The notes: generated from the letters alone by a model not told the origin. A DNA stretch of 24,000 nucleotides from Bradyrhizobium forestalis (GCF_002795245.1 NZ_PGVG01000015.1:136599-160598); one strand, 5' to 3'; positions 5,555 through 23,399 are shown, counted from the first letter of the stretch. Numbers and translations are program-made.

Positions 5555-6544
5555 GTGCAACGTTGGTCCGTCGGTTTTCCGCGCAAATTCGGTTCATTGT
5601 GTGTGGCATTTCACGGCGTTCAGGGCACAGACGCGGAGACAGTCCACAATTCTGGCTTTATTCCTTGGCTGTCGGAGGCAATCCACCTGCCCAGCGGACC
5701 GGACGTGGTCGATCACGCCTGGTTTGTTGACCAGAACGGCCTCTACACGCATGTGGTAGCGACCTATTGGGTCGAATAGATGCGTCGGGATAGCTGGCTT
5801 GATGATGCTCACGTTGCGAATTGGTGGAACAATCCAGCGAGAAATTCGGAGCGCACCGGCTACTCTCAAGAAAGTTGGACGATTCCGATCGAGCGCATCG
5901 AGACGCTGTATTGGGAAGACTATCAGGTTGGCCTCAGTCGTTCCAAGGACGTTGCGCTCTATCCTACGCCGTATTGTGGATATTACGGTGCAATGCGTGA
6001 CCGCATTCCTCTAGCTGCAGTCGATCCGCTGGCGTCGGCGCTCAATGAGCTTCAACCCGCAACTCGACGTTAGACAAGGTTTCATCGCTGGCGTATTGCC
6101 GCTCCACAGAATCTCGCAGTCATACGCTCTGGCGCGTTTTGGGGACGCTGTGATCCAGAGCAAACCGAGGACTACATGCGTGACCTGCGTGCGCCTCTTG
6201 AGCAAGGAATGGAGTTTCTGCGCGAAAGCCCCGAGGCGACTGGCTGCTGCTCGTCACGCTTCCAACAAACTTGCGATGCAGCCGGCGCACCCGAGCTTGA
6301 GACCCATGCGCTCGGATATTTCCTGTCGCTCAACCACATGGAAGAGCGGGCTGAACATCATCCTTCGCATGGAGCCATTTTCTGTGCAGCGATGGCCAGA
6401 TACCGCAGATTCGGCAAGAAAAACCAGCTGCGAACCTGGCACGAAGTCTTCGTATTGCCAGCGCAAGATCAGGCTTTCGAGTACGTCAACTGTGCGCCGG
6501 GTACCGGCTTGGTGAACTATTTTGAAGGGCACCGACTATCATAG
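5555..6544 (+). pseudogene. oxd: Aldoxime dehydratase (heme Oxd family) interrupted by two in-frame TAG codons (5777-5779, 6071-6073)
   Basis: Track ORFs 5555..5779, 5780..6073 and 6176..6544 are all in one frame. Frame 2 is also open from 6074. The joined product (...YWVE*MRRDSWLDDAHVANWW...YCGYYGAMRDRIP...ATRR*TRFHRWRIAAPQNLAVIRSGAFW...GMEFLRESPEATGC...LSLNHMEERAEHHPSHGAIF...WHEVFVLPAQDQAFEYVNCAPGTG) tracks Oxd proteins end to end. The N-terminal start is uncertain. Confidence 0.7.
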
Positions 6545-6890
6545 CGGCCCGCTTCGATTCCGGCTTAGATCCGAGCAGGTCGAACAAAGCCTTCATGGCG
6601 CTCGACACATAGGCGTCATGACGACGGACGAACACCGTTTCTACCATTGCGCGGGAAGGGGGAAGCTTATGCACGGCAACTTGGCCGTTCTTAAGAGCGG
6701 GAGCAATGACGCCCCTTGGCAGCAGAGTGACGCCAACGCCGGCGGAGACGCAACTGACGATCGCATCGAGAGATCCGAACTCGAGAGGCTGGGCCACTGC
6801 AATGCCCATTTCGGCCAAAGCGGCCTCCAGCTTTTGACGATATGAGCAGCCGATCTGGAAGACGATCGTTTTTAGATCATTGATTGTTCC
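6486..6890 (-). pseudogene. 5'-truncated LysR-family regulator (C-terminal substrate-binding half only)
   Basis: The frame opens at 6890 just after a stop. GTINDLKTIVFQIGCSYRQKLEAALAEMGIAVAQPLEFGSLDAIVSCVSAGVGVTLLP...FVRRHDAYVSSAMKALFDLL is clearly paralogous to the C-terminal half of the LysR at 1715-2677 ([21 protein letters not shown]...[18 protein letters not shown]). No HTH-encoding part lies upstream. Confidence 0.7.
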
Positions 6891-9325: not shown

Positions 9326-9399
9326 GCTCAGCTAGACCATCGCATCAGTCGCCCAACACTCAAAATCGGCCCCATGTCAGAACGGAGAACTCCCTTGTA

Positions 9400-9985
9400 T
9401 GTGCCTCCCGCGTTCAGAGACGATGACGCGGACGACTTCGTCATGGGCTTCGAGAGCAAGGCCGATGCGCAGGAAATGCTCTTGGCTCTCAAGGTGCGGC
9501 TGGCCAGCTTCGGCCTGACGCTCCATGAGAACAAGATCGAGTTTGGCCGGTTCGCGGCCCTCTCGCGTCAGCGGCGGGGCGAGCGGCGGCCAGAGACCTT
9601 CGCCTTCCTCGGCTTTACCCACTACTGCGGGCGGACACGAGATGGCCGGTTCATCGTGAAGCACAAGACGGAAGCGAAACGCCTGACGCGCAAGCTGACG
9701 GCGTTGCGCCAGGAGGCCTGGCGGCTCATGCATGCGCCACTGGCCACGCAGTACGAGTGGTTCGCCGCCGTTCTGCGCGGGCACTATGGCTACTATGGCA
9801 GGCCGCACAACTATCCAGCGCTCAACGGCTTCTACCGCGAAGTGCGTCGAACCTGGCTGCGTTGTCTGAGACGGCGCAGCCAGAAAAGTCGGCGCATGAG
9901 CTGGCCAGAGTTCGAGACCCTGACGGCACGCTTCCGCCTGCCAACTCCACGCATCACTCGCACATGGGCGCAGGCGCGGATATGA
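9400..9985 (+). pseudogene. C-terminal fragment of a group II intron reverse transcriptase/maturase (intron A); N-terminal RT motifs missing
   Basis: Homology starts around RT motif 5 (RDDDADDFVMGF, cf. YADD). It continues through FAFLGFTHYCG and the maturase/X domain (VLRGHYGYYG...RRRSQKSRRMSWPEFE). RT motifs 0-4 are not present upstream. Confidence 0.75.
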
Positions 9986-10567
9986 CGCGGGTTACCCTCG
10001 GGAAGAGCCGGGTGCGGGGTGTGCTGCAGGTGCACACGGGAGGGGGTTTGCGATGAACAACTGACCGTGGGGATAAGCTGCGCGAAAGATGAGGGCGGGC
10101 CCCTCGGGATCGGCTTTCAGGAGCAGGTCCCAAACCAGTCCAAGCTGCTGCGTTCAAAAGGCGCGGTGGTGAGCGTTGGATCAAAAGTCCGAATGAAATT
10201 CGGGCAGGTGAGCATTCGAGAGACGAGCGTGAGCAAACCCTCGGTGACGCGCCGAAAGGCTTTAGACACTGCTAAAACCGGAGGCGCTCGCATCCTCTGG
10301 GACAAATCTGTCGGTTACCTGGGTACTGGGCAGATAGCGGTCGGCGTATAGGGGGCGTGAAGCGGATGCAGGCTTTCGTGTGGAACTGCAGGAACCAGTC
10401 CCTGGATGCCAAGGGAGAAGCTGAAGCGGCTAAAACTGCGAGGCGAGAGTACCGAAGCCAGGGACTGGGGCGGACCGACCCGTACGAGCGGTGAAGGCCC
10501 CGTAATCGGGCCGGAGCAAAGGGGTCGGGTCAGGACAAATCGTATTGACGTACCAACTGGAAACAGG

Positions 10568-11827
10568 ATGACGACGACGATCACGACAAACAAGCCGTTT
10601 CATATCGATAAGAAACGTGTGTACGAGGCTTACAAAGCGGTCAAATCCAATGCGGGTTCGGCCGGTGTGGATGAACAGACGATCGAGCAGTTCGACTCCG
10701 ACTTGCAGAACAATCTCTACAAGCTTTGGAATCGGATGAGCTCGGGAAGCTACTTTCCACCACCGGTGCGCGCCGTCTCCATTCCCAAAAAGGCTGGAGG
10801 CCAGCGGATTTTAGGTGTGCCAACCGTAGCGGATCGAGTGGCCCAGATGGTTGTCAAACAACTCATTGAGCCGGACTTGGACCCAATATTTTTGGCAGAC
10901 TCCTATGGCTATCGGCCGAGAAAATCGGCGCTCGATGCTATCGGCGTCACGCGCAAGCGGTGCTGGAAATACGACTGGGTTCTCGAATTCGACATCAAAG
11001 GTCTGTTCGACAACATCGACCATGAACTTTTGCTACGGGCTGTCCGGAAGCACGTGACGTGCAAGTGGGCGCTGCTCTACATCGAACGATGGCTGACGGC
11101 ACCTATGGACAAGGATGGAATAATTATCGAGCGAACCCGCGGCACCCCTCAGGGTGGCGTGATTAGCCCGATATTATCCAACCTTTTCTTGCACTACACT
11201 TTCGACCTCTGGATGGGACGGGCGCACCCCGACCTCCCATGGTGTAGGTATGCAGACGATGGCCTAGTGCACTGCCGGAGCGAGCAAGAAGCGGAAGCCT
11301 TAAAGGCCGAGCTACAAACTCGTCTGGCGGAATGCGGGCTTGAGATGCACCCCACCAAAACCAGGATTGTCTACTGTAAGGACAGCCGGCGGAAGGGCAG
11401 CTATTCGAACGTCAAGTTTGACTTCCTTGGCTACTGCTTCCGGCCGCGACGGGCAAAGAACTCGCAAGACGCCTCGGTGTTCTGCAGTTTTCTGCCTGGG
11501 GTCAGCGCTTCGGCGCTGAAGTCTATGCGGGCGGCAATCCGGGATTTGAACCTCCGAAGACGGACCCATGTGTCAATGGCTGACATCGCTCGGCAGCTCA
11601 ATCCACTCCTGCGGGGGTGGATTGAGTATTACGGTCGATTCACGCGGGCGGCTCTGGGGCCAATCCTTCGATACGTCAATCAGACAATCGAGGCTTGGAT
11701 GATGCGGAAGTTCAAACGCTTTATGGGTCGCAAGGCCAAGCCCGGCCGCGTTCTCGAACGACTATCTCGAGAACGTCCCGGGTTGTTCGCACACTGGAAG
11801 ATCGGCATACGCGGCTCGTTCGCCTGA
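10568..11827 (+). CDS. Group II intron-encoded reverse transcriptase/maturase (RT + X domains, no obvious endonuclease domain)
   Basis: ORF 10406..11827. Probable start is MTTTITTNKPFHIDKKRVYEAYKAVKSNAGSAGVDEQT (ATG 10568). RT motifs seen are RAVSIPKKAGGQRILGVPTVADRV, GTPQGGVISPILSNLFL and RYADDGLVH. The maturase motif is LNPLLRGWIEYYG. Confidence 0.9.
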   Translation: MTTTITTNKPFHIDKKRVYEAYKAVKSNAGSAGVDEQTIEQFDSDLQNNLYKLWNRMSSGSYFPPPVRAVSIPKKAGGQRILGVPTVADRVAQMVVKQLIEPDLDPIFLADSYGYRPRKSALDAIGVTRKRCWKYDWVLEFDIKGLFDNIDHELLLRAVRKHVTCKWALLYIERWLTAPMDKDGIIIERTRGTPQGGVISPILSNLFLHYTFDLWMGRAHPDLPWCRYADDGLVHCRSEQEAEALKAELQTRLAECGLEMHPTKTRIVYCKDSRRKGSYSNVKFDFLGYCFRPRRAKNSQDASVFCSFLPGVSASALKSMRAAIRDLNLRRRTHVSMADIARQLNPLLRGWIEYYGRFTRAALGPILRYVNQTIEAWMMRKFKRFMGRKAKPGRVLERLSRERPGLFAHWKIGIRGSFA

Positions 11828-11830
11828 TGG

Positions 11831-11864
11831 GAGCCCAGTGAGGCGAGAGTCTCACGCTGGGATC
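11831..11864 (+). ncRNA. Group II intron domain V (catalytic hairpin) of intron B
   Basis: GAGCCCAGU-GAGGC-GAGA-GUCUC-AC-GCUGGGAUC is 34 nt. It has the AGC triad, a GNRA loop and a 2 nt AC bulge, matching the canonical DV layout position for position. Confidence 0.85.
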
Positions 11865-11867
11865 TAT

Positions 11868-11901
11868 GAGAGGCCGGCGGTGAGATTCCACCGGCCTACT
11901 C
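11868..11901 (+). ncRNA. Group II intron domain VI of intron B with bulged branch-point A (about 11898)
   Basis: GAGAGGCCGGCGG-UGAGAUU-CCACCGGCCU(A)CUC forms a hairpin with a single unpaired A on the 3' strand, 3 nt after DV. Confidence 0.65.
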
Positions 11902-11907
11902 GCCAAA

Positions 11908-11958
11908 GCCGCCTGCCCGGATCTGTGAGGGCAAAGCCAAATGGCCGAGCTACTCGAC
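11908..11958 (+). mobile_element. 3' remnant of intron A: 3' half of its domain V (GCCGC-CU-GCCCGGAUC, 11908-11923) and a domain VI-like hairpin ending ...GCUACUCGAC
   Basis: GCCCGGAUC pairs with GAGCCGGGU at 10005-10013, which lies 20 nt after the intron A RT stop. The downstream hairpin GAGGGCAAAGCC-AAAU-GGCCGAGCU(A)CUC mirrors the DVI of intron B. Confidence 0.5.
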
Positions 11959-12061
11959 CACGATCCCTGCGCCCACCGGCTCTCGCGTACTTGGAACTCG
12001 AGATTGCGCCCCCAGTGTGATCGTGAAGCTTGTGGGGTAACGGTCGAAGACATGAATTAGA

Positions 12062-12285
12062 CTGTACAACCTGACCCCACGCAGGCCTTAAGCTCTTTCA
12101 GGTGCCGGTCATGGCGAGGCTGATTGAGGTATGTGCACGCGTCGAGCCTCAAGTTAATGATCCTCTGCGGATTCCGACGAAAGAAGCGCGAGGCGGACCC
12201 GCTTTCTCGACACTTGCACATACCTCAATCAGCCTCGCCACAGCCGTCAAGGCTTGATTCGTACGTGGCGTGAGGTTGTAACCTG
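12062..12285. repeat. Large imperfect palindrome / MITE-like inverted repeat (~85 bp arms, ~60 bp centre)
   Basis: Core arms 12112-12146 (TGGCGAGGCTGATTGAGGTATGTGCAcgcGTCGAG) and 12206-12240 (its reverse complement, with 3 mismatches). Outer arms GTACAACCTGACCCCACG (12064-12081) and CGTGGCGTGAGGTTGTAAC (12264-12282). Confidence 0.7.
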
Positions 12286-12778
12286 AGACCGAGCGCGCGG
12301 CCAATTTCCAAATTGAAGCCGGAGCTGGACGGGTTGTTTGAGATGAAAGCGGACGTCTTGCGTCTATACGGGCCAGGTTCAAACCCGACGTGCCGCACCG
12401 CTCTTTCAAAGGAGGATGCGGGTAATGAGCGAACAGAGAGAAGGGGGAGGACTGTCGTTCTTTGGCTTTGTTGCGGTCGTCGACCTGAGCGAACGGCTTA
12501 GCTCCGGGTCAGCTATGAAGATTTACCTCATCTAGGGAGAGTGATGTGGAGTCCAACTATAACGAATGGTTCATTACGGACGCTTGGATGCATCAATACG
12601 CTGCTTTGCAAGAGCAGCAGCGGGCGAGGCAAGAGTCGGATCATATTCCTGCGGATCGTCGGATTATCGCGCCAATCTCATCAGGGTGACGGCACAGCGC
12701 GCGGTGGCAGGGATGGCGTGATCATGGGTTTCTTTTTCGCCGAGCACTTGCAGCGCACTCGGTGAGTTCTCCCCCACT

Positions 12779-12799
12779 GCGAGGACCTCGTGTCCTCGC
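12779..12799 (+). terminator. Hairpin GCGAGGAC-CTCGT-GTCCTCGC followed by GACCTTTTGCG; weak terminator or insulator upstream of pqqA
   Basis: Perfect 8 bp stem and a short T-run. Function is inferred. Confidence 0.3.
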
Positions 12800-12840
12800 G
12801 ACCTTTTGCGCCGCATTCATCTAGCCAGGAGCAAATCGAT

Positions 12841-12945
12841 ATGAGCTGGAAAGCCCCAAAAATCGTCGAATTACCGGTCGGTCTCGAAATCAACATGTAT
12901 GCGTGCGCCGCTCGCAAGGAGGTTACCAGAAAGCTGGGAGCTTGA
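12841..12945 (+). CDS. pqqA: PqqA, ribosomal precursor peptide of pyrroloquinoline quinone (34 aa, orphan copy)
   Basis: Below the ORF-track size cutoff. ATG 12841 with AGGAG about 10 nt upstream. The product MSWKAPKIVELPVGLEINMYACAARKEVTRKLGA has PqqA spacing W-x2-P-x3-E-x3-G-x-E-x3-Y, including the cross-linked Glu-x3-Tyr pair. Confidence 0.75.
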   Translation: MSWKAPKIVELPVGLEINMYACAARKEVTRKLGA

Positions 12946-13036
12946 AGACAGATCCTATCCTTGCGGTCAACGATCGAAGTGAGCACTACCCTGGCAAACA
13001 ACACCACACCTTAGGCAATCTCAAGGAGGAGACAAG

Positions 13037-13828
13037 ATGTCGATCACGATGACTCATAACGCCAAGTCTGCCGCTGAGGACCGTACTCAGCCGTTGGCGA
13101 ATTTCAAACTTGCAGCAGGAGTCACTCTGGCGGTGCTAGCGCTGATGGTGTTCTGGCGCATCTTTCAGCAGGTCTATGCTTGGAGTGCCGGCCTGGATTC
13201 GACTGAGCCCGCGTTCGATGTCGCCTGGATGACGTTGCTGAAGGTTGAGCTTAGCGTCATCCCTTTGCTCTGGGTGGTGACCTGGGCGTATCTATGGTTC
13301 ACGCGAGACCGCAATCTTGGCGCGCTCAAACCGCGGGAAGAGCTCCGGCGTTACTTCAATCTGGTCCTGTTCATCTTCATCTATGCCCTTTGCGTCTGGT
13401 TCGCTACCAGCTTCTTTGCCGAGCAGGACGCCTCATGGCATCAGGTTGTGGTCCGGGATACAAGCTTCACGCCGAGTCACATCGTGCTGTTCTACGGCAC
13501 CATGCCACTCTACGTCCTGTTTGGCGTGGGATCATTTCTGTACGCGATGACGAGGCTGCCGAAGTTCGCAACGCAGATCTCAATTCCATTCGTGCTCGCG
13601 GTTGTAGGTCCGTTTCTAATATTGCCGAACTTGGGCTACAACGAGTGGGGCCATGCCTTCTTCCTGATGGAAGAGGTGTTCTCCTATCCCTTGCACTGGG
13701 GCTTCGTCGTGATGGGCTGGAGTGTGCTGGCCTTGGGTGGGCTCCTGATCCAGATCGCGATGCACATGCTTGAAGTGATCGGGCGGCTTTCCCAAGAGGA
13801 CGAAGTTTCGGTCGCCACCCAGCGCTGA
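13037..13828 (+). CDS. pmoC: Copper membrane monooxygenase subunit C (PmoC/AmoC family; generic xmoC)
   Basis: SD AAGGAGGAG upstream. Contains the hallmark EQDASWHQVVVRDTSFTPSHIVLFY and NEWGHAFFLMEEVFSYPLHW motifs with all Asp/His/His and Asn/His/His metal ligands. Multi-TM, 263 aa. Confidence 0.9.
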   Translation: MSITMTHNAKSAAEDRTQPLANFKLAAGVTLAVLALMVFWRIFQQVYAWSAGLDSTEPAFDVAWMTLLKVELSVIPLLWVVTWAYLWFTRDRNLGALKPREELRRYFNLVLFIFIYALCVWFATSFFAEQDASWHQVVVRDTSFTPSHIVLFYGTMPLYVLFGVGSFLYAMTRLPKFATQISIPFVLAVVGPFLILPNLGYNEWGHAFFLMEEVFSYPLHWGFVVMGWSVLALGGLLIQIAMHMLEVIGRLSQEDEVSVATQR

Positions 13829-13860
13829 AACCGCTTATGAACCATTGATCGCTGACAGCC

Positions 13861-13881
13861 CGGCATGTGCAAAGCATGCCG
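13861..13881 (+). promoter_or_regulatory. Intercistronic hairpin between subunit C and A genes (CGGCATG-TGCAAAG-CATGCCG, then TCTTG)
   Basis: 7 bp perfect stem in the 126 nt C-A spacer. Possibly an mRNA processing, stability or attenuation element (inference). Confidence 0.25.
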
Positions 13882-13954
13882 TCTTGTAATCATGTCGGGC
13901 GTCGGTTTCCAGGAAGGTCGATCTCAACTCGGTAAAAGCAATTAGGAGGAAGCC

Positions 13955-14812
13955 ATGCAAGGAGGAACGTCTGTGAGACTGTATGGGCTCGAATGGCCTA
14001 AAGAGTCAGCAAGAATCTCAAGAGTGTTAGACCTTCTCGTCGCCGCCATCCTTTTTCTGGCCGTCTCCGGCGCATTCCACCTACATTACATGCTGACCGC
14101 AGGGGACTGGGATATGTGGATCGATTGGAAAGACAGACAGTGGTGGGTCACTTTGTCTCCAATTATGGCCATAACATTCCCTGCAGCTTTGCAGTATGTG
14201 TTTTGGACGAAATTTAGACTTCCAATCGCCGCTACATTTGCGGTCGTTTGTCTCCTGTTCGGTCAGTGGATAAATCGATATTTCGGTTTCCACCTTTGGT
14301 CGTACTTTCCGATGAGCGAGGTCATTCCAGCGCTGCTGATACCTGGCGCACTAGTCCTCGATGTCGCTCTTTTGCTGACCGGGAATTTTTTGTTCACGGC
14401 CATGTCCGGCGCCTTTGCATTCGCACTGCTTTTCTACCCGACTAACTGGTTTTGGCTGGCGCCATATCGGCTACCCGTAGAAGTGATGGGGCAGCTTGTT
14501 TCCGTGGGCGATTACATCAGCTATGCCTTCACCCGCACCGCCCTGCCTGAGTATATCCGGCTGATAGAGCGGGGCACGCTTCGAACTTTTGGTGGCCACT
14601 CAGCCATTATCGCGTCCTTTTTCTCGGCGTTCGTATCCATACTGATGTATTTGGCGTGGTGGCATATCGGAATGCTCCTCGCTCGTGTGGTAACGACGCC
14701 AAACACCCTGAAAAATTTTATGGGGCTCACCGATAAGGATGAGCCAGCTGAGGCAGCCCAAAAAGCCATAGACGGCACCAGCCTGCAAGGGCGCTTCGTC
14801 GCAGCCGAATGA
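13955..14812 (+). CDS. pmoA: Copper membrane monooxygenase subunit A (PmoA/AmoA family; xmoA) with a ~35 aa C-terminal extension
   Basis: HLHYMLTAGDWDMWIDWKDRQWW, GQWINRYFGF and LPEYIRLIERGTLRTFGG are PmoA/AmoA signatures. There are two possible starts, each with its own AGGAGG: ATG 13955 or GTG 13973. Confidence 0.9.
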   Translation: MQGGTSVRLYGLEWPKESARISRVLDLLVAAILFLAVSGAFHLHYMLTAGDWDMWIDWKDRQWWVTLSPIMAITFPAALQYVFWTKFRLPIAATFAVVCLLFGQWINRYFGFHLWSYFPMSEVIPALLIPGALVLDVALLLTGNFLFTAMSGAFAFALLFYPTNWFWLAPYRLPVEVMGQLVSVGDYISYAFTRTALPEYIRLIERGTLRTFGGHSAIIASFFSAFVSILMYLAWWHIGMLLARVVTTPNTLKNFMGLTDKDEPAEAAQKAIDGTSLQGRFVAAE

Positions 14813-14839
14813 TCCTGCTGGGACTGTGGAGGACTCCAA

Positions 14840-16162
14840 ATGAGAACATTCTGTTTCCGCAAAAGCTCACGCTTGCTTGTAATCTTATCGGCAGCGGCGG
14901 CGATCATGCAGATCGGAATACTGACCTTCGTCCCAGATGCTGCTCTGGCGCATGGTGAGCGCAATCAGGAGCCGTTTCTGCGGATGCGAACGGCTCATTT
15001 TTACGATGTGAACTGGAGCACGAACGAAATTCCCGTGAACGGTGAAATCGTTGTCACCGGCAAGTTCCGACTCTTCCCGATCTGGCCAGTCAACCTACCC
15101 CTTCCCGAAGCGGCCTTTCTGGGAAACGGGACGCCGGGCCCGGTGCTAGCCCGAACCGAGAGCTACATTAATGGTGTCCCAGCAATTCAGTCCACCAAAC
15201 TGGAGTTGAACCGGGACTATGAATTCAAAACAGTGCTCAAAGGACGAGTGCCAGGCCACCATCACGTCCATCCGATGATCAACGTGATGGGAGCCGGGCC
15301 GCTGCTCGGACCGGGAAACTGGCTGACGGTGACGGGGAACGAAAGCGACTTCAAGCTTCCAATCAAAACTCTCAGTGGCGAGACTATCGATAATCTCGAA
15401 ACCTGGGGCCTTGGCAGGGTGTTCTTCTGGCATGGCTTGTGGGTTGCGATCGCCATCGTGTGGCTTGTCTGGTGGTTGCGCCGGCCGCTCCTGCTGCCTC
15501 GTTTTCGCGCGTTGACGGAAAAAGGCGGCGATCGATCTCAGCTCGTTACCAGCACCGATCGCCTATTTGGGGCCGGTTTGCTCGTGGCGACGATTCTCAT
15601 CGTATTCTTCGGCTTTCAGGCGACCGACATCGCTTATCCAAGGACCGTGCCGCTGCAGGGGTCCCGCGCAACCGTCGAGCCCCTACCGGAAGTGCCTGAG
15701 CAGGTCAAAGTTGTGGTCAACAAGTCAAACTATGACGTCCCTGGCCGCTCGCTTCGTATGAACGTGACACTGACGAACAATGGGAGCACGTCAGCACAGC
15801 TTGGCGAGTTCTTAACTTCCAATCAGCGCTTCATCAACCATGAGGTTAGCCAGGCAATGGCGGCGGTGGATCCGAATTACCCCAAGGAATTGCTTCCTCC
15901 GAATGGGCTTAAGGTGAGCGACAGCCGACCGCTCAAGCCGGGTGAAACGAAGACAGTCGATATCGAAGCGGCCGACGCGGCATGGGAGACGGAGCGCTTG
16001 AGTAGCCTGATCAACGATCCGGACAACACGTTGGGAGGACTGTTGTTCTTCTATGACGAGCACGGCAAACGGACAATCTCAAACGTCAGCGGCCCCATGG
16101 TCCCTGTATTCACCGATCCCGACAACCGCACGGCTGAGAATCCGAAAGGAGGTCCGGGTTGA
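14840..16162 (+). CDS. pmoB: Copper membrane monooxygenase subunit B (PmoB/AmoB family; xmoB)
   Basis: Signal peptide ending ALA|HGERNQEPFLRMRT (N-terminal His of the CuB site). Contains the HxH motif (GHHHVHPMINVMGAGPLLGPGNW), two central TM helices and a C-terminal cupredoxin-like domain. SD GGAGG upstream. Confidence 0.9.
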   Translation: MRTFCFRKSSRLLVILSAAAAIMQIGILTFVPDAALAHGERNQEPFLRMRTAHFYDVNWSTNEIPVNGEIVVTGKFRLFPIWPVNLPLPEAAFLGNGTPGPVLARTESYINGVPAIQSTKLELNRDYEFKTVLKGRVPGHHHVHPMINVMGAGPLLGPGNWLTVTGNESDFKLPIKTLSGETIDNLETWGLGRVFFWHGLWVAIAIVWLVWWLRRPLLLPRFRALTEKGGDRSQLVTSTDRLFGAGLLVATILIVFFGFQATDIAYPRTVPLQGSRATVEPLPEVPEQVKVVVNKSNYDVPGRSLRMNVTLTNNGSTSAQLGEFLTSNQRFINHEVSQAMAAVDPNYPKELLPPNGLKVSDSRPLKPGETKTVDIEAADAAWETERLSSLINDPDNTLGGLLFFYDEHGKRTISNVSGPMVPVFTDPDNRTAENPKGGPG

Positions 16163-16725
16163 ACATCGTAAAAGCCGCAGTGCTTGGAATTCCATCTTTG
16201 CTCCTCATCCTAGACTGCGGTGGGGCGCGGCCAGCGATTGCACACGGGGGAGTATCGATGGAGAAAGACGTGTGCAAGCTTCGCGCTGGGCCCTATATGA
16301 TGCATTTTACCGGATACCAGCCGGCCAAGCAGGGGAATCAGGAATTTTGCGAGGACATTCCGGAAATCGGCCGCACGGTCATCGTCTTGGATGCCGTCGG
16401 CGATGTGCTACGTGATCTGCCCATCGAGGTGCGGTTGTTGCGAGACGCCGGCAACGACGTAGACAGCGAGGCCGTCCTTCGAATCCCGCCAAAACAATAT
16501 CCGACAGGCTCACTATCGTTTCAGTACACGTTCCCCGAATCCGGGCGCTTTGTGGGCCTCGTGATAGTCGGCGACGGACCGAAATACGTATCGAGATTTC
16601 CGTTTTCGGTTGGTTACGGCAACGGGATTTGGGTCCGATATAGGGACAGTTTCGCAATCGTTCTAGGAACGCTGGCAGCCGGGGCCGCCCTGTTTTGGTA
16701 CTCCACGTTGCGCAAGGAAAGCTAG
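16159..16725 (+). CDS. PmoD/AmoD-like secreted protein: signal peptide, beta-rich periplasmic domain, single C-terminal TM anchor
   Basis: TTG start overlapping the subunit B stop (TTGA), with AAAGGAGG 7 nt upstream. Signal peptide ends AIA|HGG. Contains a C-x7-M-x-H motif (VCKLRAGPYMMHF) and a C-terminal helix IVLGTLAAGAALFWY. Position right after CAB matches pmoD/amoD. Family assignment is from architecture and memory, not alignment. Confidence 0.6.
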   Translation: MNIVKAAVLGIPSLLLILDCGGARPAIAHGGVSMEKDVCKLRAGPYMMHFTGYQPAKQGNQEFCEDIPEIGRTVIVLDAVGDVLRDLPIEVRLLRDAGNDVDSEAVLRIPPKQYPTGSLSFQYTFPESGRFVGLVIVGDGPKYVSRFPFSVGYGNGIWVRYRDSFAIVLGTLAAGAALFWYSTLRKES

Positions 16726-16769
16726 GCTAGCACTTTGTCGGCCGCTGTCCGGCAATAAGGGTCACACTC

Positions 16770-17297
16770 ATGTCTCACGAAAAACACGGAAACAAGAGCG
16801 ATTATATCCGAGTAGCGACGGGGCCGTCACTCGATCATGCTGGCACGCCAAACTTGACCGCCGGCACCGGCAGGGCGCGAACTAGGCTGATTCAAGGGAC
16901 GGTAAAAGAACTCTCCTCCGCAAGCAGGCGTCCGGTATCAGCGCTTGGCATCACGTTGCTGTGCGTTGGCCTCGTGTGCCTGCCGACGGCCGCCTCTGCA
17001 CATGCCGCTCTCGTGAAGTCCGATCCCGCGAGCCGGGCAGTGTTAGCTCATTCGCCGCAGCAGATCGAACTGTGCTTCAACGAACGCATAGAGCTCAAGT
17101 TTTCGAAAGTGGAGCTCAAGAACGCCAATGGTCAGTCGCTAACGCTCGGCGATTTGAAAGCAGGCAATGATCCGAAGTGCATGGTAACGGCAGTATCTGA
17201 CATGAGACCGGGGAGCTATTCGGTTCATTACCGCGTGCTCTCGCAAGACGGGCATGTGGTGGACTACGGCTATCAGTTCACCGTCGAGCAACGTTAG
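16770..17297 (+). CDS. copC: CopC-family periplasmic copper-binding protein
   Basis: Mature N-terminus is ASA|HAALVKSDPA, and the protein also contains YSVHYRVLSQDGHVVDYGYQFTV, both canonical CopC. An unusually long n-region carries SRRPVSAL (Tat-like twin arginine). The start codon is uncertain. Confidence 0.8.
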   Translation: MSHEKHGNKSDYIRVATGPSLDHAGTPNLTAGTGRARTRLIQGTVKELSSASRRPVSALGITLLCVGLVCLPTAASAHAALVKSDPASRAVLAHSPQQIELCFNERIELKFSKVELKNANGQSLTLGDLKAGNDPKCMVTAVSDMRPGSYSVHYRVLSQDGHVVDYGYQFTVEQR

Positions 17298-17306
17298 GCA
17301 TGCGGA

Positions 17307-19298
17307 ATGACGGTATTGTTTCCAGCTCTGTGTAAGGCCATCGCTGACATTGCGCTTGCATGGGTCATAGGCGGAGTACTCTTTCTGTTGCTGGCAGCGC
17401 CGTCTTCCGATCCGTTACTTGCCGCTTGGCAAAGACGAGTGCAGGTGAGCTTTCTCTGGGCGGCCGGCATTCACCTCTTCGCTACCGCTGGGTTATTTAT
17501 CGCTCAAGTCGCGATTGCGACAGATATGGCACTATCGGAGATAGTCGCGGCTGGCCAGACGCTGGAAAGCTTCGGATTTGACACACATTACGGTCGGATC
17601 ACGCTTGCAAGGTTAGCGCTCTCTCTTCTTTTGCTGCTGCCGACAGCGATCCTAATTCGCGGCTGGTCGAGGGAGCAGCAACGTTTAGCCTCAATCGTGA
17701 CAGCCTGGACAGCAGCACTGATCGCGCTGATTGGTCCACTTGCTGGACACGCCGCCGGGGAAGACGACAGCCGTTGGCTCGTTCCGACCCATCAACTTCA
17801 CGTGCTCGCGGTTTCGGCTTGGCTTGGGGCCTTACCGGCTTGGATCTGGCTGGTGGCTTCGGTCGCTGTCACCCCCACGGAGACTCGGCGCGTCTATGTC
17901 GCAGCGACGCTGCGACGTTTCTCCCAACTAGCAATCGGTTTCGTGGTCGCCGTCGTCGCGTCAGGTTTGGTGCTCGCGTTTAGCTCCGCTAGTTCGGCTG
18001 GCGAGTGGCTTGGCACGACCTACGGTCAACTAATTATAACGAAGCTTGCTCTACTTGCATGCATCCTGTTGGTGGCCAATCGGATTCGCACGCGCTTCCT
18101 ACCCGTCATGGAAACCGTAGGAGCAAAACCCGCGGCTTTTCTTGCAGGAGCTGGATGGGCAGCAACTGAATTCTTTTGCGGTGTTCTGATCGTCGGCTGC
18201 GCAGCCGCGCTCTCAACAGTCATACCAGCACGACATGATCAGCCCATCTGGCGGCTGCCGTTTCGCTTTTCGATCGAAGCCACGTGGCCGGCGTGGCCGA
18301 CGCCTGTTATCGCGGCGGGCGCCTTCTCACTAGCACTATTGTCACTCTTCTGGGGCCTACTCGTTTGTTTGAGAAAGCCGCAAAAGGCAAAAGCAGTTGC
18401 AGCAGGCGCCGCCGCCGTTATTTCGGTCGCAGGCGGTCTGTGGCAGATATCCGTGCAAGCCTATCCCGATACTTACCGCCGCCCGTCGGTTGCCTATTCG
18501 ACGATATCAATAACCAATGGAAAGCGTCTATTTGCCCAGAATTGTGCGGCTTGCCACGGCAGCGGAGGGCTTGGCGATGGTCCGGCGGCATCGACCCTTC
18601 CCAAGCCGCCCGCGAATTTGAGCGAACCGCATACTGTGCTGCACACGGCCGGCGACATGTTTTGGTGGCTTAGCCATGGAATTCCAAAAAGCGGCATGCC
18701 CGGATTTGCTGATGTATTGGACGAACAGGCCCGTTGGGATGTGATCAACTTCCTGCGGACGTTTTCAGAGGGATTTCAGGCGCGCATCCTGTCGCCTGAA
18801 ATCGTACCCGATCATCCGTGGCTGGGGGCTCCAAACTTTTTCTTAGAGGACGAGAATGGGGCGGAGAGGGAGCTGAAGGACTTCCGTGAGCAAAGCAATG
18901 TGCTGCTCGTGTTTCCCGAAAAGTCCGACGCAATGCGCGTTGAACAGCTACGCCTTGAGCAGAAAAGATTCCGGAAAGAACGATTGTGGGCGATTATCGT
19001 GTCGCCGGACGCAACGCTGGCGGCGGGCGTCCCAAATGTCCGGCATGGAGCACAAGAGGTTAGAGAAAGTTACGATCTGCTCTCCCGGAGCACTACAAAT
19101 CGTGGAGATCCCAAGCGTTTGGAAATGGGAAGACATTCCATGGAATTCCTAATCGACAGGTTCGGATACATCCGTGCGCGCTGGTTGCAAGCGGAGGACG
19201 AATGTGGTTGGCAAAATTCCGACGAGCTGATCTCGCAGGTCCGAGTTCTCAATAGAGAGTCCAAAATTCTCCCGCCACCCGCGCAACATGTGCACTGA
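17307..19298 (+). CDS. copD: Three-part fusion: CopD-like polytopic membrane domain + class I cytochrome c domain + C-terminal thioredoxin-fold-like domain lacking cysteines
   Basis: The first ~380 residues are multi-TM and CopD-like. They are followed by NCAACHGSGGLGDG...SGMPGF (CxxCH heme motif plus a Met ligand candidate). Next comes FFLEDENGAERELKDFREQSNVLLVFPEKSD, which resembles a redoxin/peroxiredoxin beta-alpha start but has no Cys. Confidence 0.75.
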   Translation: MTVLFPALCKAIADIALAWVIGGVLFLLLAAPSSDPLLAAWQRRVQVSFLWAAGIHLFATAGLFIAQVAIATDMALSEIVAAGQTLESFGFDTHYGRITLARLALSLLLLLPTAILIRGWSREQQRLASIVTAWTAALIALIGPLAGHAAGEDDSRWLVPTHQLHVLAVSAWLGALPAWIWLVASVAVTPTETRRVYVAATLRRFSQLAIGFVVAVVASGLVLAFSSASSAGEWLGTTYGQLIITKLALLACILLVANRIRTRFLPVMETVGAKPAAFLAGAGWAATEFFCGVLIVGCAAALSTVIPARHDQPIWRLPFRFSIEATWPAWPTPVIAAGAFSLALLSLFWGLLVCLRKPQKAKAVAAGAAAVISVAGGLWQISVQAYPDTYRRPSVAYSTISITNGKRLFAQNCAACHGSGGLGDGPAASTLPKPPANLSEPHTVLHTAGDMFWWLSHGIPKSGMPGFADVLDEQARWDVINFLRTFSEGFQARILSPEIVPDHPWLGAPNFFLEDENGAERELKDFREQSNVLLVFPEKSDAMRVEQLRLEQKRFRKERLWAIIVSPDATLAAGVPNVRHGAQEVRESYDLLSRSTTNRGDPKRLEMGRHSMEFLIDRFGYIRARWLQAEDECGWQNSDELISQVRVLNRESKILPPPAQHVH

Positions 19299-19341
19299 AT
19301 TAGTGGAAATCTTTCAGGGCTCGCAAACAAAGGAGGAAAGC

Positions 19342-19854
19342 ATGCAAATATCATCCCGTCCCAACCGGTTTGGCGATCGATTCGAACAGTTCATTTGGTG
19401 CATGATTCTTGTGGCTGGCGCTCTGGTCGCGGCTCCAGCCCACGCACAACACCATGAGCCGGGCATGCACCATATGCACGGGTCTGACGGTGCGCCTGTT
19501 GCGAGATCGGGAAATACCGGCGAGCTGCCCGCATTGAAGATCCTCCTGCCGCAATCGGGTAATACCATCGGCGAGCGTGTTGCTTTCGTTTTCCAAGCCG
19601 ACGATAACATCGCAGAAATGACCATGAGCTCTGCCAATGCGAGCGTTCATCTGCATGTTGCGATGGACGAAACCGAGCTCATGCCAATGGCAGACCAGCT
19701 GATCCAGCTTGGTGATGGCCGCTATCTCTATGTTTTTGATCTCCCTGCCAAGCCTGGTCGGCACACAATAAGACTCTATTGGGCGGATCCGCAGCATCAC
19801 ACAATCTCCGAGACGGTACAGACCCTCAACGTGGTTGTGAAGGAATCAAAATGA
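19342..19854 (+). CDS. Secreted His/Met-rich protein, probable periplasmic copper-binding protein (DUF4399-like pattern)
   Basis: Start chosen at ATG 19342 (AAAGGAGGAAAGC upstream) inside ORF 19288..19854. Signal peptide is followed by HAQHHEPGMHHMHGSD. The later VHLHVAMDE...LGDGRYLYVFDLPAKPGRHTIRLYWADPQHH recalls DUF4399 (tentative). Confidence 0.7.
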   Translation: MQISSRPNRFGDRFEQFIWCMILVAGALVAAPAHAQHHEPGMHHMHGSDGAPVARSGNTGELPALKILLPQSGNTIGERVAFVFQADDNIAEMTMSSANASVHLHVAMDETELMPMADQLIQLGDGRYLYVFDLPAKPGRHTIRLYWADPQHHTISETVQTLNVVVKESK

Positions 19855-20081
19855 GCAAGCCGTCAATCATTGGGGGCTTAGGTGTGAGCCATTATCAGGA
19901 AAGTCTTGCGCGTGCGCTAGCTGATCCGGAGGGATTGTGGGCGGAAGCTGCGAAAGAGGTTGATTGGATCGAGTGGCCGAGAAAGATCTTCGATCCATCA
20001 ATGGGCATCTACGGCCGTTGGTGCGCCGGCGGAGCGGTCAACACTTGCTACAACACGCTCGATCGCCATGTCGCACATGGC
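19851..20081 (+). pseudogene. prpE: 5' fragment (~77 codons) of an acetyl/propionyl-CoA synthetase (PrpE/Acs family) gene, truncated
   Basis: ATG 19851 overlaps the preceding stop (ATGA). MSKPSIIGGLGVSHYQESLARALADPEGLWAEAAKEVDWIEWPRKIFDPSMGIYGRWCAGGAVNTCYNTLDRHVAHG is the conserved N-terminus of the family. After ~20081 the frame turns into low-complexity junk and stops at 20177. Confidence 0.7.
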
Positions 20082-20211
20082 AGCTGCGCGGCGGCCGGAT
20101 CACGCGGTTCTTCGCCGCGCAGTTCCTCGGCGGCTTCAATGGGCGCCTCCTGCAATGCGGCGCGTGACGAGCGCTGATCTGACGTGAGTTGCGGCGTATC
20201 CCTCCGCCAAA

Positions 20212-20317
20212 GCTTTCAATTACCCACAAATGCTTGATTCGATGGCGGTAGTCCTGATCGAAAAATCTTGAATCGGATGAATCGCTTGTGATTCATTGTC
20301 GGGCACCTGAAACGCGA
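20212..20317. repeat. Copy A of a diverged 106 bp direct repeat (partner at 23835-23940)
   Basis: GCTTTCAATTACCCA... then ...AAATCTTGAATCGgAtGAAtcgCTTGTGATTCaTTGtcGgGCACCTGAaaCGCGA. The first ~18 and last ~60 positions match at roughly 80 percent by eye, and the middle is diverged. Confidence 0.7.
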
Positions 20318-20993
20318 TTGGCCCGACGCCCGGCGCACTCATCAGGCGGCGACAATGTGCATCTTGCTCCGCGATCTCGTTGATCTCCTTGGTGACTAAC
20401 GCGACGCGACGGTCGAGATAGCGCCAGTCCTCGGCCAAGTCCTGGATGAGCCGAACCACCCGAGGTGACAGGCTTTCCGAAGGCATCGAGAGGATTTGGG
20501 GGAGCGCCAATCGGAGTGCTGCCGCTCCCTGCCGCACTGGTAGCCCTCGCTCAAGCAAAAAGCCCCGGATTTGATTGATGACCGCCGTTCTCTGCGTCAC
20601 CAATCGACTGCGAACTCTGTGGAGTGCCTGCAAATTGAGTTGTTTGGCCGACTTCACTGGGACGAACCGCATTGTCGGCCGCTGAACGGCCTCGGCGATC
20701 GCTTCAGCATCCCGAAAATCATTCTTGTGACCTTTGAGGTATGGCTTGACGTACTGTGCCGGCAAGAGCCGGACTTGATGGCCAAATTTCTCGAGCTTGC
20801 GCCCTAGATGATGTGCGCCTGCACACGCCTCCATTCCGATCAGACAACGCGGAACATTGGCCAGCGACTGGTCAAGCTGATTTCTCGACCGCTTCTTGCG
20901 TAGCGTGATTGCGCCTGTGGCATCGAGACCAACGACATGGAATGTGTTCTTCCCGAGATCGATACCGATCGTGACAATGTTCGTATTCGACAT
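20220..20993 (-). mobile_element. IS110-family transposase, truncated or internally deleted (DEDD N-terminal domain intact; helix-hairpin-helix/Transposase_20 domain cut after GVGPIA)
   Basis: MSNTNIVTIGIDLGKNTFHVVGLD...CLIGMEACAGAHHLGRKL...LLPAQYVKPYLKGHKNDFRDAEAIAEAV...LQALHRVRSRLVTQRTAVINQIRGFLLERG...LMSAPGVGPIA is typical IS110. The last 30 codons are encoded by repeat A and are unrelated to the family. Start moved to ATG 20993. Confidence 0.8.
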
Positions 20994-21090
20994 GGCTTGC
21001 GCTCCTGCTGCTGCCCCGCCGGGCTCCACGTTGCCGCTGAGAGCGGGCGTGGTCCATGCCATTAACTCATGAGAACTTTCTCGTCGGAGC

Positions 21091-22053
21091 TCACGCTTCT
21101 CGAATGCTCAAGCGCTTCGGGGGCGTGAAATATCGATATTTTCCGGTGAGCGTACCGTTAACGAACTGAAGACCGTGATCGCCATAGATGATATCCTCGC
21201 GCAAGTAGCCGTCGGCTATGGCCTCTTGATTGTTGCCACCGACTGTCTTGCGGCTAGTCGCGACCCCATGGCGGGCTGACGGCGAGCCGAATATTTCAAT
21301 TATGGATTCGCGTGGTGTGCCCAGTTTCAAGGCATCAAATTGTTTGGCAGGAATCATTCCTGATGCCTCGATGGACTCAGCTCTCATTGGTGGGAGGTCT
21401 TCAGATCCAATTGGCCTACGAGCCACAACTTTCTCGATGCAGTGCGAATGTATTGGAATGCCAGGATGCGAGTCCCATTTAATGTAATGATCAGACCGTA
21501 GAATCTCCCAGTCTGCTTCCGCATAGATGGCCTCCAGCTCTCCACGCGAGAACGACTTCTTGTGACCGGACACCAAACTCTCCTTCGAAATAGGATGGTC
21601 TGGTTGATCGAGAGTATTGGTGAAGCAATGAAATCCTCCCGGCCGAGTCCTATCGATGAAGGCCGTGACGAGCGGTTTCCAGACGCTCCGTTCCGTGAAA
21701 TGCAATACGGAATGCGCTATAAGGACGTCGAGGTAAGCAGGCGGCCGGAAATCTTCAACGCGAACAACTCCGCTCGTAATGTTCACGCCAAGATCGCCTG
21801 CGAGCCGGTTCAGCTTGGAGATAGCGGCTTCAGAGATGTCAGTCGCGATCACCTGATGATCAAAATGGGCCAGATAGAGAGCATTGCGCCCCTCGCCGCA
21901 ACCCAGCTCGACAACCACGCTCTTCGCGCGGAGAGCTGGCGCGATCTCGAAGATTTCGGGGCTAGGACCACCCATAGACGAAACGTTGTGGTCGGCGTAG
22001 CCCGAATCCCACCAACAAGGTGAATTCGCCACCTCTTTCATACTGAACCTCAC
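21091..22053 (-). CDS. Class I SAM-dependent methyltransferase (TehB-like core) with an extra ~100 aa C-terminal domain (BamE/BLIP-like pattern)
   Basis: SAM motif I is VVELGCGEGRNALYLA, followed by VIATDISEAAI and LIAHSVLHF. The C-terminal FDALKLGTPRESIIEIFGSPSA...LQFVNGTLTGKY resembles small lipoprotein-type beta domains (tentative). The start overlaps the radical SAM stop (ATGA). Confidence 0.75.
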   Translation of the reverse strand: MRFSMKEVANSPCWWDSGYADHNVSSMGGPSPEIFEIAPALRAKSVVVELGCGEGRNALYLAHFDHQVIATDISEAAISKLNRLAGDLGVNITSGVVRVEDFRPPAYLDVLIAHSVLHFTERSVWKPLVTAFIDRTRPGGFHCFTNTLDQPDHPISKESLVSGHKKSFSRGELEAIYAEADWEILRSDHYIKWDSHPGIPIHSHCIEKVVARRPIGSEDLPPMRAESIEASGMIPAKQFDALKLGTPRESIIEIFGSPSARHGVATSRKTVGGNNQEAIADGYLREDIIYGDHGLQFVNGTLTGKYRYFTPPKRLSIREA

Positions 22054-23399
22054 GCCGCCTGATATTGCTCCTCAAGGCGAACCATCGTGTCGGAGTAAAA
22101 CATCCGAGCTATAATGCTTGAATATTTGAACCCCTTTTGAGTGAGCTGACAAACATCATCATCTGCCAAATTGACGAGTTGCAAAGACTCGAGCGCCTTG
22201 AGTTCTTCACCAAAATCATTTGCTAGTGCTCGTCCGGATATGGCAGCGTACTTCTTTCTGCTTAAAGCTGACAATGTGAGGCCAAGCAGCGCGTAACGAC
22301 GCGCAACATCTTCCGACGTCAGTTTAATTCCGTGTGATGCTATCGCCCCAGAATCGAACGGTCGATCCGAGAATGCGCTGATGATGCGCGAAGCCGCGCG
22401 CCCGTCTACGGCATAATCAGTGCTATAGTGATATTGGCCGAGGTAGCTTCTAGCACCAGCTCCTAATCCTAGCAGGGGTGTCCCCTCGAAGTCCGACATC
22501 TCCTGCCGGTAGGCATGGTCGCCAGTCATCCTCGTGAAACGTGTGAAGGATTCTTGACGGTAGCCTTTGGACGCCATCAGAGCAACGTTCTGATCGTAGA
22601 CTTCATACTTTTCCGCTTCAGAGAAAAATAGCTCAGGATCGCACATTTTCGAGGTAATGACGTTCGTCATCGGACGAATAACAACGGGATAGAGAGAAAT
22701 TGTCTGCGGCTCATAGTCGAGCACGCGGCCAAGCGAAAGGATCCAAGAGTTGAGGGTTTGGCCACGCAGGCCGTAAATCAGATCAAGATTGACGTGAGAA
22801 AAGCGCTTGATGAGGGCTTCGATTGCCGCTTTTGCGATCTCGATCGAATATGGCCGACCACAGTGCGCAAGCTCGCCGGGCTCCATACTTTGGATGCCCA
22901 TGCTCATTCTGTTGACGCCAAGTGCCTGCAAGCAATCCATAAGGTTGTTGTCGAAAGAGTCCGGTGCGCCCTCGACCGTAATCTCGCATCGCCGGCTTCG
23001 TTTTGGAAATGCAGTATCGAGGGCGGCGAATATCTCGCTAAATTGATGCTTCGTTAGCAGCGTCGGAGTGCCGCCGCCGAAATAGATACTGACAACCTCT
23101 TGATCTCCAAAGTACTCTCCATAACGAGCGATGTGCTCTACCAACCGACCAACATAAGACTCCTGGGTTCCGTGCCTATTGCGCGTTGTAAGGAGAGTGC
23201 AATAGGTGCAGCGGTAACGACAGAACGGAATGTGGACATAGATGTTGATTTGCTTTGAGCGATTAACCTGCTCAATAACATCAGCGATGCGGAGTGGTTG
23301 CCGGAAAGCCCTATACGCGCGCTTCGAAGGATAGCCATAAACATATGTTGGCAGCTCCTTCTTCTCTATCTTCGTCCGAAGAAATTCCAGACGATCCAT
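22050..23399 (-). CDS. HemN-like radical SAM enzyme (coproporphyrinogen III oxidase-like / class C radical SAM methyltransferase family)
   Basis: NIYVHIPFCRYRCTYCTL (CxxxCxxC cluster motif), SIYFGGGTPTLL, and a HemN_C-like C-terminal part. 449 aa. GC content and codon usage are visibly lower than the flanks. Confidence 0.8.
   Translation of the reverse strand: MDRLEFLRTKIEKKELPTYVYGYPSKRAYRAFRQPLRIADVIEQVNRSKQINIYVHIPFCRYRCTYCTLLTTRNRHGTQESYVGRLVEHIARYGEYFGDQEVVSIYFGGGTPTLLTKHQFSEIFAALDTAFPKRSRRCEITVEGAPDSFDNNLMDCLQALGVNRMSMGIQSMEPGELAHCGRPYSIEIAKAAIEALIKRFSHVNLDLIYGLRGQTLNSWILSLGRVLDYEPQTISLYPVVIRPMTNVITSKMCDPELFFSEAEKYEVYDQNVALMASKGYRQESFTRFTRMTGDHAYRQEMSDFEGTPLLGLGAGARSYLGQYHYSTDYAVDGRAASRIISAFSDRPFDSGAIASHGIKLTSEDVARRYALLGLTLSALSRKKYAAISGRALANDFGEELKALESLQLVNLADDDVCQLTQKGFKYSSIIARMFYSDTMVRLEEQYQAA

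Follow-up and report, generated by a model that had tools for sequence, protein, structure and literature searches.

A stretch of 24,000 nucleotides from Bradyrhizobium forestalis (GCF_002795245.1, NZ_PGVG01000015.1:136599-160598), referred to throughout as the window, was analysed with emphasis on three adjacent forward-strand genes that encode a copper membrane monooxygenase (CuMMO), a type of enzyme responsible for the first step in the oxidation of methane, ammonia and short-chain alkanes. The genes, arranged in the order xmoC (13037-13828; 263 amino acids (aa); Pfam AmoC, E 3e-93), xmoA (13955-14812; 285 aa; Pfam AMO, E 4e-94) and xmoB (14840-16162; 440 aa, with a signal peptide; Pfam Monooxygenase_B, E 3e-141), were confirmed by both Pfam and NCBIfam to be homologous to those for subunits C, A and B of particulate methane monooxygenase (pMMO, Pmo) and ammonia monooxygenase (AMO, Amo), all three products scoring above the cut-offs of the NCBIfam AmoC/A/B_BACT models. 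An earlier reading made from the sequence alone (the sequence-only reading) had recognised this trio by its CuMMO motifs, and its coordinates and strand proved exact.

Metal ligands were assigned by alignment to the solved pMMO and AMO chains, and the residues of the CuB, CuC and CuD sites were all found to be present, as had been claimed. The CuB ligands of XmoB are H38, H142 and H144, which align with those of PmoB and carry numbers identical to those in solved AMO; H38 is the mature N-terminus (AALA/HGERNQ), and H142 and H144 lie inside a GHHHVH run. XmoC provides both of the other sites, CuC (D131/H135/H148) within the motif EQDASWHQ...FTPSH and CuD (N202/H206/H220) within NEWGH...PLHW. 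No frameshift and no internal stop was detected in any of the three genes. By homology, XmoCAB would be a membrane enzyme with its catalytic copper sites, CuC and CuD, in XmoC and the CuB site in XmoB, and its identification as a genuine CuMMO with copper-supply accessories is well supported.

The suspected divergence from canonical PmoCAB and AmoCAB was also evident, XmoA being merely 49-51% identical to the three solved AmoA chains and likewise to Methylococcus capsulatus PmoA. Among solved structures, the best match for XmoB was M. capsulatus PmoB (E 7e-119). Two further peculiarities remarked upon at the outset need qualification. XmoA does have a C-terminal tail, its Pfam domain stopping at residue 243 of 285, but proteins of 270-290 aa are ordinary for the clade to which it belongs; equally, the HHHVH run of XmoB is present, but HHVH is typical of that clade and common to Bradyrhizobium and Cycloclasticus, leaving the extra first histidine (H140) alone as Bradyrhizobium-specific.

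A mobile cassette with accessory copper genes

Comparison by blastn with five other loci (L001-L005) placed the three genes within a conserved forward-strand cassette extending from 12907 to ~19900, the shared block ending at 19891-19951. Its DNA is 97.2-98.5% identical to the copies in B. uaiense, B. niftali, B. frederickii, B. cajani and Bradyrhizobium sp. NAS96.2, so that at least six Bradyrhizobium species, B. forestalis included, carry it. XmoC and XmoB are identical in B. forestalis and strain CB1717, and the 90% protein clusters of XmoC, XmoA and XmoB contain Bradyrhizobium members only, among them B. niftali, B. frederickii, B. cajani, Ai1a-2, CIAT3101, Pa8 and several USDA and UFLA strains; in all, the cassette is kept in about 20 strains. 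In NAS96.2, xmoC-xmoA occurs on two contigs (L004, L006) with slightly different upstream sequence, and the strain therefore probably holds two copies.

Downstream of xmoB lie four further genes, including the pmoD-copC-copD set that the sequence-only reading had missed. The first (16159-16725, forward strand) encodes a 188-aa PmoD/AmoD homologue with a signal peptide, a cupredoxin-like domain and a C-terminal membrane helix, and a profile built from 13 sequences matched the solved PmoD (PDB 6CPD) with E 2.9e-28. Fisher et al. (PMC6189053) described the motifs of in-operon PmoD/AmoD proteins as Cx7MxH...C or Cx8MH...C, and the arrangement C39-x7-M47-M48-H49...C64, followed by a hydrophobic C-terminus, fits both; motif, membrane helix and in-operon position thus all accord with membership of the family. 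The deposited annotation, a 155-aa protein beginning at an internal methionine (also at L082 12304-12771), drops the signal peptide; the 188-aa open reading frame (ORF) with its TTG start is judged correct and the shorter call too short, because the A-H-G that follows the signal peptide is invariant in 13 homologues. The second gene is copC (16770-17297, forward strand; Pfam CopC, E 3e-22), for a periplasmic copper-binding protein.

The third (17307-19298, forward strand) encodes a 663-aa fusion of a CopD membrane domain (Pfam CopD), a cytochrome c domain (Pfam Cytochrom_C) and a cysteine-less AhpC/TSA-like domain, the last matching AhpC-TSA with E 1.5e-3 in the window copy and E 2e-9 in the L007 orthologue; its terminal HVH (H171/H173) is invariant in 14 sequences. 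The fourth (19288-19854, forward strand) encodes a His/Met-rich periplasmic protein, a putative copper binder with a weak DUF4399 match, recognised from its translation; its mature N-terminus reads QHHEPGMHHMHG and its true start is likely to be Met19, near 19342. It is intact in five of five species with a dN/dS (ratio of nonsynonymous to synonymous divergence) of 0.14-0.29, and has no sequence similarity to the 154-aa product of the gene after copD in relatives. Homology suggests that these four proteins would serve in the periplasmic acquisition, reduction and delivery of copper. The cytochrome c domain may in addition transfer electrons, and the fusion is a concrete candidate for either a copper-reduction or import step or for electron delivery.

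All seven cassette ORFs, totalling ~6.8 kb, are free of stop codons and indels across five species. Synonymous divergence (dS) among the species copies is 0.02-0.10, and dN/dS, although calculated from small numbers of substitutions, is mostly 0.1-0.6 and below 1 in nearly all comparisons.

The surroundings of the cassette differ markedly from host to host. In B. niftali it is sandwiched between a relaxase/TraG pair and trbB-E, IS66 being alongside, and in strain Pa8 it lies on a 374-kb plasmid amid IS66, IS21, a DDE transposase and IS3; the latter copy was traced via its protein cluster, a megablast search of the plasmid collection with the cassette having given no match. In the B. forestalis window a group II intron stands on one side and an IS110 transposase on the other, neither of which had been noticed earlier. 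The intron is complete (10019-11904, forward strand; Rfam group-II-D1D4-2 and Intron_gpII, domain V/VI), contains a reverse transcriptase/maturase ORF (10406-11827, forward strand; Pfam RVT_1 plus GIIM), and is situated ~1.1 kb upstream of xmoC. It corresponds to an exact 1886-bp gap in the alignment with the CB1717 chromosome, which is otherwise 99.5-99.7% identical to the window, and is thus a recent insertion. A truncated reverse transcriptase fragment (9374-9985, forward strand; C-terminal part of Pfam RVT_1 only), the remnant of an older group II intron, is likewise found in CB1717. The IS110-family transposase (20220-21062, reverse strand; Pfam DEDD_Tnp_IS110, E 2e-20) flanks the downstream end. 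The G+C fraction is 0.56 in the cassette versus 0.60-0.62 at the window start.

Since the same 7-kb block recurs in different flanks in each species, the cassette is mobile cargo. The horizontal acquisition proposed in the sequence-only reading is accordingly strongly supported by the conjugation, insertion sequence (IS) and plasmid contexts of copies that differ by so little at synonymous sites, and by the lower G+C content. The pattern is read as recent horizontal spread, with the cassette being kept intact while its surroundings decay; as the monooxygenase genes and four genes for copper handling have evidently travelled from species to species as a unit, the cassette represents a candidate minimal transferable gene set.

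Relic genes are apparent at both edges. A 34-aa pqqA-like ORF, MSWKAPKIVELPVGLEINMYACAARKEVTRKLGA, at 12841-12945 (forward strand), 92 nucleotides upstream of xmoC, displays the PqqA signature W..P...G.E..Y, and its CB1717 copy matches Pfam PqqA. It is intact in four Bradyrhizobium copies, carries a 4-bp deletion in two and has had its 5' half replaced in two, and no such ORF was found upstream of xmoC in any non-Bradyrhizobium locus of the clade. Given its disruption or loss in half of the copies and its absence from other clade loci, a role as a functional core partner was ruled out, and the ORF is probably a relic outside the core cassette.

At the other edge, a remnant of a prpE/acs-like acyl-CoA ligase gene (19851-20080, forward strand; NCBIfam propionate-CoA ligase, E 1.6e-12; acetate-CoA ligase, E 6e-12) shares an ATGA overlap, indicative of translational coupling, with the last cassette gene. 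The first 13-76 codons are retained in every Bradyrhizobium copy, IS66, IS3 or other rearrangements having truncated the gene at a codon that varies between species. This overlap, taken with the differential truncation, implies that the ancestral operon probably ran on into acyl-CoA formation. A common lineage for the remnant and the PrpE-like ligases found beside xmoCAB in two alphaproteobacterial relatives (L014 and L017) was considered and is unsupported, the identity being only 41%.

Phylogenetic placement and relationship to known systems

Scanning of species-representative genomes yielded 80 loci, and the C, A and B proteins were extracted from 64 of them. The tree of concatenated CAB sequences, constructed by neighbour-joining only with 100 bootstraps and, like the tree of subunit A, without actinobacterial Hmo/Bmo, Nitrosococcus, comammox or archaeal references, recovered Bradyrhizobium XmoCAB as monophyletic with 100% bootstrap support. 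It lies inside a clade of 21 taxa, also supported at 100%, in which every other member is a metagenome-assembled genome (MAG). Within this clade, identity is 68% to groundwater MAGs of Rhodocyclales and other Betaproteobacteria, 62-66% to alphaproteobacterial soil MAGs and 64-66% to gammaproteobacterial lake MAGs. Outside it, the values fall to 58% for a Xanthobacteraceae-type group, 51-54% for the Cycloclasticus and ET-HIRO-like groups, 46-48% for pxm-like and gammaproteobacterial pmo/Crenothrix loci, and 42-44% for verrucomicrobial loci.

The phylogenetic check recommended with the sequence-only reading thus placed the operon in no characterised pmo or amo clade: XmoA branches apart from the three solved AmoA, and the operon stands in a 100%-bootstrap clade separate from pMMO and Pxm. 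In the nearest protein clusters, every member that bears a name is likewise a MAG, and within these searches the Bradyrhizobium isolates are the only cultured hosts of a lineage otherwise represented solely by uncultured groundwater, lake and soil bacteria. By these comparisons the operon is an uncharacterised member of the CuMMO superfamily, outside the characterised pMMO and AMO clades, and its carriage on a mobile cassette in a culturable symbiont is notable. CuMMOs are difficult to study: they are refractory to heterologous expression, and neither their electron donor nor their copper loading has been settled. As Bradyrhizobium isolates are both culturable and genetically tractable, the lineage can be approached through them directly by experiment.

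The CopD-cytochrome c fusion adjoins xmoCAB in ~30 related loci, which are spread over the Bradyrhizobium-containing clade, a second betaproteobacterial group and the Xanthobacteraceae-type group; it was not found within 10 kb in pmo, pxm, verrucomicrobial or Cycloclasticus loci. CopC and the fusion are conserved beside xmoCAB across the wider supergroup. Measured over its three parts, the Bradyrhizobium fusion is 44/71/51% identical to the Xanthobacteraceae-type version (L024, L026 and L028, from Xanthobacteraceae/Bradyrhizobium MAGs) and 30-35/50/35% identical to the versions in its own XmoCAB clade. Because the fusion is nearer to that of another xmoCAB lineage, this pattern suggests that the cassette is a mosaic assembled by recombination.

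Comparison with the extended pmo and amo operons of alphaproteobacterial methanotrophs and betaproteobacterial ammonia oxidisers (PMC6189053) reveals the same C-A-B order followed by PmoD/AmoD, CopC and CopD, the same B and C metal ligands, and the in-operon type of PmoD motif. Unlike those operons, the Bradyrhizobium proteins are 42-51% identical to their counterparts and form a clade of their own, CopD is fused to a cytochrome c and to the cysteine-less thioredoxin-like domain ending in HVH, and an extra His/Met-rich protein, a heterotrophic rhizobial host and a mobile cassette are involved. A second point of reference is provided by the hydrocarbon-linked CuMMOs of marine Gammaproteobacteria, namely those of the Methylococcaceae ET-HIRO and ET-SHO from ethane enrichments, the ethylene-using Haliea ETY-M, and Cycloclasticus. 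In the CAB tree they lie on the same side as the Bradyrhizobium operon, with XmoA identities of 48-53% over the alignment (53-61% in local BLAST alignments); unlike the Bradyrhizobium operon, they form distinct clades, have no CopD-cytochrome c fusion within 10 kb, and belong to marine hydrocarbon degraders.

The betaproteobacterial xmoCABD of Rochman et al. (2020) is reportedly tied to ethane and propane and not to methane. The existence of the operon is not itself new, since RefSeq annotates the proteins as AmoCAB and Khadka et al. (2018) listed CuMMOs of unknown function in Bradyrhizobium sp. ERR11 and Solimonas aquatica, left undiscussed there; the ERR11 operon is evidently of the type described here. 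Literature searches combining Bradyrhizobium with CuMMO, amoCAB, pmoCAB or symbiosis island yielded that mention only, and no characterisation.

Several observations concern the MAG loci themselves. One alphaproteobacterial contig (MFD04944.bin.1.97 contig_30022) carries two divergent xmoCAB operons (L014 and L030) ~24 kb apart, one in the Bradyrhizobium-containing clade and the other in a group with a Methyloceanibacter MAG. Two near-identical contigs (L024, L025) were binned as a 'Bradyrhizobium' MAG and a 'Sulfotelmatobacter' MAG, and several lake MAG records (L010, L015, L021) are titled Klebsiella; the titles of these MAG records are therefore unreliable as a guide to taxonomy.

Substrate and alternative readings

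Taken as a whole, the data modestly favour a functional, self-contained and mobile CuMMO module for which a C2-C4 hydrocarbon would be the likeliest substrate; the substrate assignment considered by itself is put forward tentatively, as the leading candidate but somewhat short of probable. Four lines of evidence point to a small hydrocarbon. The nearest relatives with any substrate link are the ethane- and ethylene-using isolates and Cycloclasticus, at 51-54% identity and in separate clades. Catabolic genes adjoin xmoCAB in some alphaproteobacterial members of the clade, with a PrpE-like propionate/acetate-CoA ligase in L014 and L017, accompanied in L014 by the acrylyl-CoA reductase AcuI, a DUF779 protein and OmpW, and an ExaC-type acetaldehyde dehydrogenase in L039. 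To these may be added the coupling of the prpE-like remnant to the cassette, and the fact that no nitrification or C1 gene was linked to xmoCAB in any locus examined.

On this basis ethane, propane or ethylene would be converted to the corresponding alcohol or epoxide, and ancestrally onward to acyl-CoA; as the cassette encodes no further metabolic steps, alcohol and aldehyde dehydrogenases of the host would have to process the oxidised product. The suggestion of the sequence-only reading that the operon might oxidise a hydrocarbon or some other substrate fits this contextual evidence, and the context is, as it had supposed, unlike that of a methanotroph, the host being a heterotrophic rhizobium.

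A number of considerations weigh against this interpretation. The catabolic neighbours occur in merely three of ~18 clade loci, and the nearest relatives, from Betaproteobacteria (L007, L008), have only housekeeping neighbours. The prpE-like gene has been destroyed in every Bradyrhizobium copy and so is not needed there. CuMMOs are promiscuous as a family, and their substrates cannot be read from sequence (PMC6215863). XmoA and XmoC score slightly better against solved AMO (E 9e-84 and 1e-76, respectively) than against pMMO (4e-78 and 5e-70). Deep nodes were unsupported in a neighbour-joining tree of subunit A only, for which reason the concatenated tree was relied upon. Finally, dN/dS values of up to 0.6, with one xmoB pair at 2.6 on the strength of nine changes, would fit somewhat relaxed constraint.

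This last point bears upon the proposal that the cassette is selfish or decaying cargo, recently transferred and either not expressed or not useful in Bradyrhizobium. Its setting among IS elements, introns and pseudogenes, the decay of the adjoining prpE-like and pqqA-like genes, the lack of linked downstream catabolic genes and a dN/dS that is not very low are all in keeping with such a fate, as is a scan for sigma-70 promoters and terminators over 11900-20300, in which sites were no more numerous than in shuffled sequence and no convincing promoter emerged. It is nevertheless unlikely, given that seven ORFs have remained unbroken in five species while the genes beside them have repeatedly been broken, that dN/dS is below 1 nearly throughout, and that the cassette persists in about 20 strains, one of them probably with two copies.

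The possibility that the operon encodes an ammonia monooxygenase, conferring heterotrophic nitrification or the co-oxidation of ammonia to hydroxylamine on a nitrogen-fixing symbiont, derives from the AmoA/B/C_BACT matches, after which RefSeq names the proteins, from the AMO structures being the best solved matches for XmoA and XmoC, from an amoCAB-D-copCD layout like that of betaproteobacterial ammonia oxidisers (PMC6189053), and from the AmoD-type Cx8MH motif in the PmoD family of the clade. The same models, however, label the whole of the uncharacterised clade that contains Bradyrhizobium, XmoA is no closer to solved AmoA than to PmoA, and the operon belongs to a separate, fully supported clade of uncultured sequences. 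Moreover, neither hao nor any other hydroxylamine-handling gene was detected in the 24-kb window, the cassette included, or in the 10 kb upstream in CB1717, and the neighbours in relatives are genes for aldehyde dehydrogenase and acyl-CoA ligase, with none for nitrification. Ammonia is on balance a distinctly unlikely substrate, and the RefSeq label 'ammonia monooxygenase' could mislead metagenomic surveys of nitrification in Bradyrhizobium-rich soils.

Methane oxidation, by which the strains would be cryptic facultative methanotrophs passing methanol to host dehydrogenases dependent on pyrroloquinoline quinone, is improbable in spite of M. capsulatus PmoB being the best solved match for XmoB, the pqqA-like gene just upstream of xmoC in several copies and the XoxF-type methanol dehydrogenase of Bradyrhizobium cited in PMC7907005, since the operon falls outside all of the pmo, pxm and verrucomicrobial groups, half of the copies have a broken or missing pqqA-like ORF, none of the loci examined has a linked gene of a C1 pathway, and domain scans of the window with Pfam and NCBIfam found no methanol dehydrogenase (mxaF/xoxF) or C1-assimilation gene, in agreement with the absences noted previously.

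Returning to the hydrocarbon-oxidising module, a bolder and rather improbable extension is that nodule-forming Bradyrhizobium strains exchange it as a minimal 7-kb unit via conjugative elements and plasmids, and that it functions after transfer, acting on a gas that matters to the symbiosis with plants or to life in the soil, candidates being ethylene, a plant hormone that inhibits nodulation, and trace ethane, propane or methane. If so, it would constitute a new rhizobial route for modulating symbiosis or scavenging trace gases, and would offer a CuMMO that is portable by nature in a host amenable to genetics.

Other genes in the window

The remaining neighbours include two LysR genes and genes for a nitronate monooxygenase, a major facilitator superfamily transporter and a glutathione S-transferase. 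The LysR, nitronate monooxygenase and glutathione S-transferase assignments had been made correctly in the sequence-only reading, but the gene that it called 'mmsA', truncated by the start of the window, encodes an aldehyde dehydrogenase, as identified from the colinear CB1717 locus.

A gene for a haem-containing aldoxime dehydratase (5555-6544 and 6486-6818) is split over at least two reading frames, with a C-terminal LysR fragment beside it, and a nitrilase-family gene is present upstream in CB1717 (L083 7172-8248). Together with the nitronate monooxygenase gene, the broken dehydratase and the CB1717 nitrilase look like a decayed aldoxime-nitrile cluster.

Beyond the IS110 element, the reverse strand at 21091-23399 encodes a TehB-like S-adenosylmethionine (SAM) methyltransferase and a STM4012-family radical SAM protein, the latter matching its NCBIfam model with E 1e-108, just below the cut-off; this gene pair is 99% identical in B. 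cajani.

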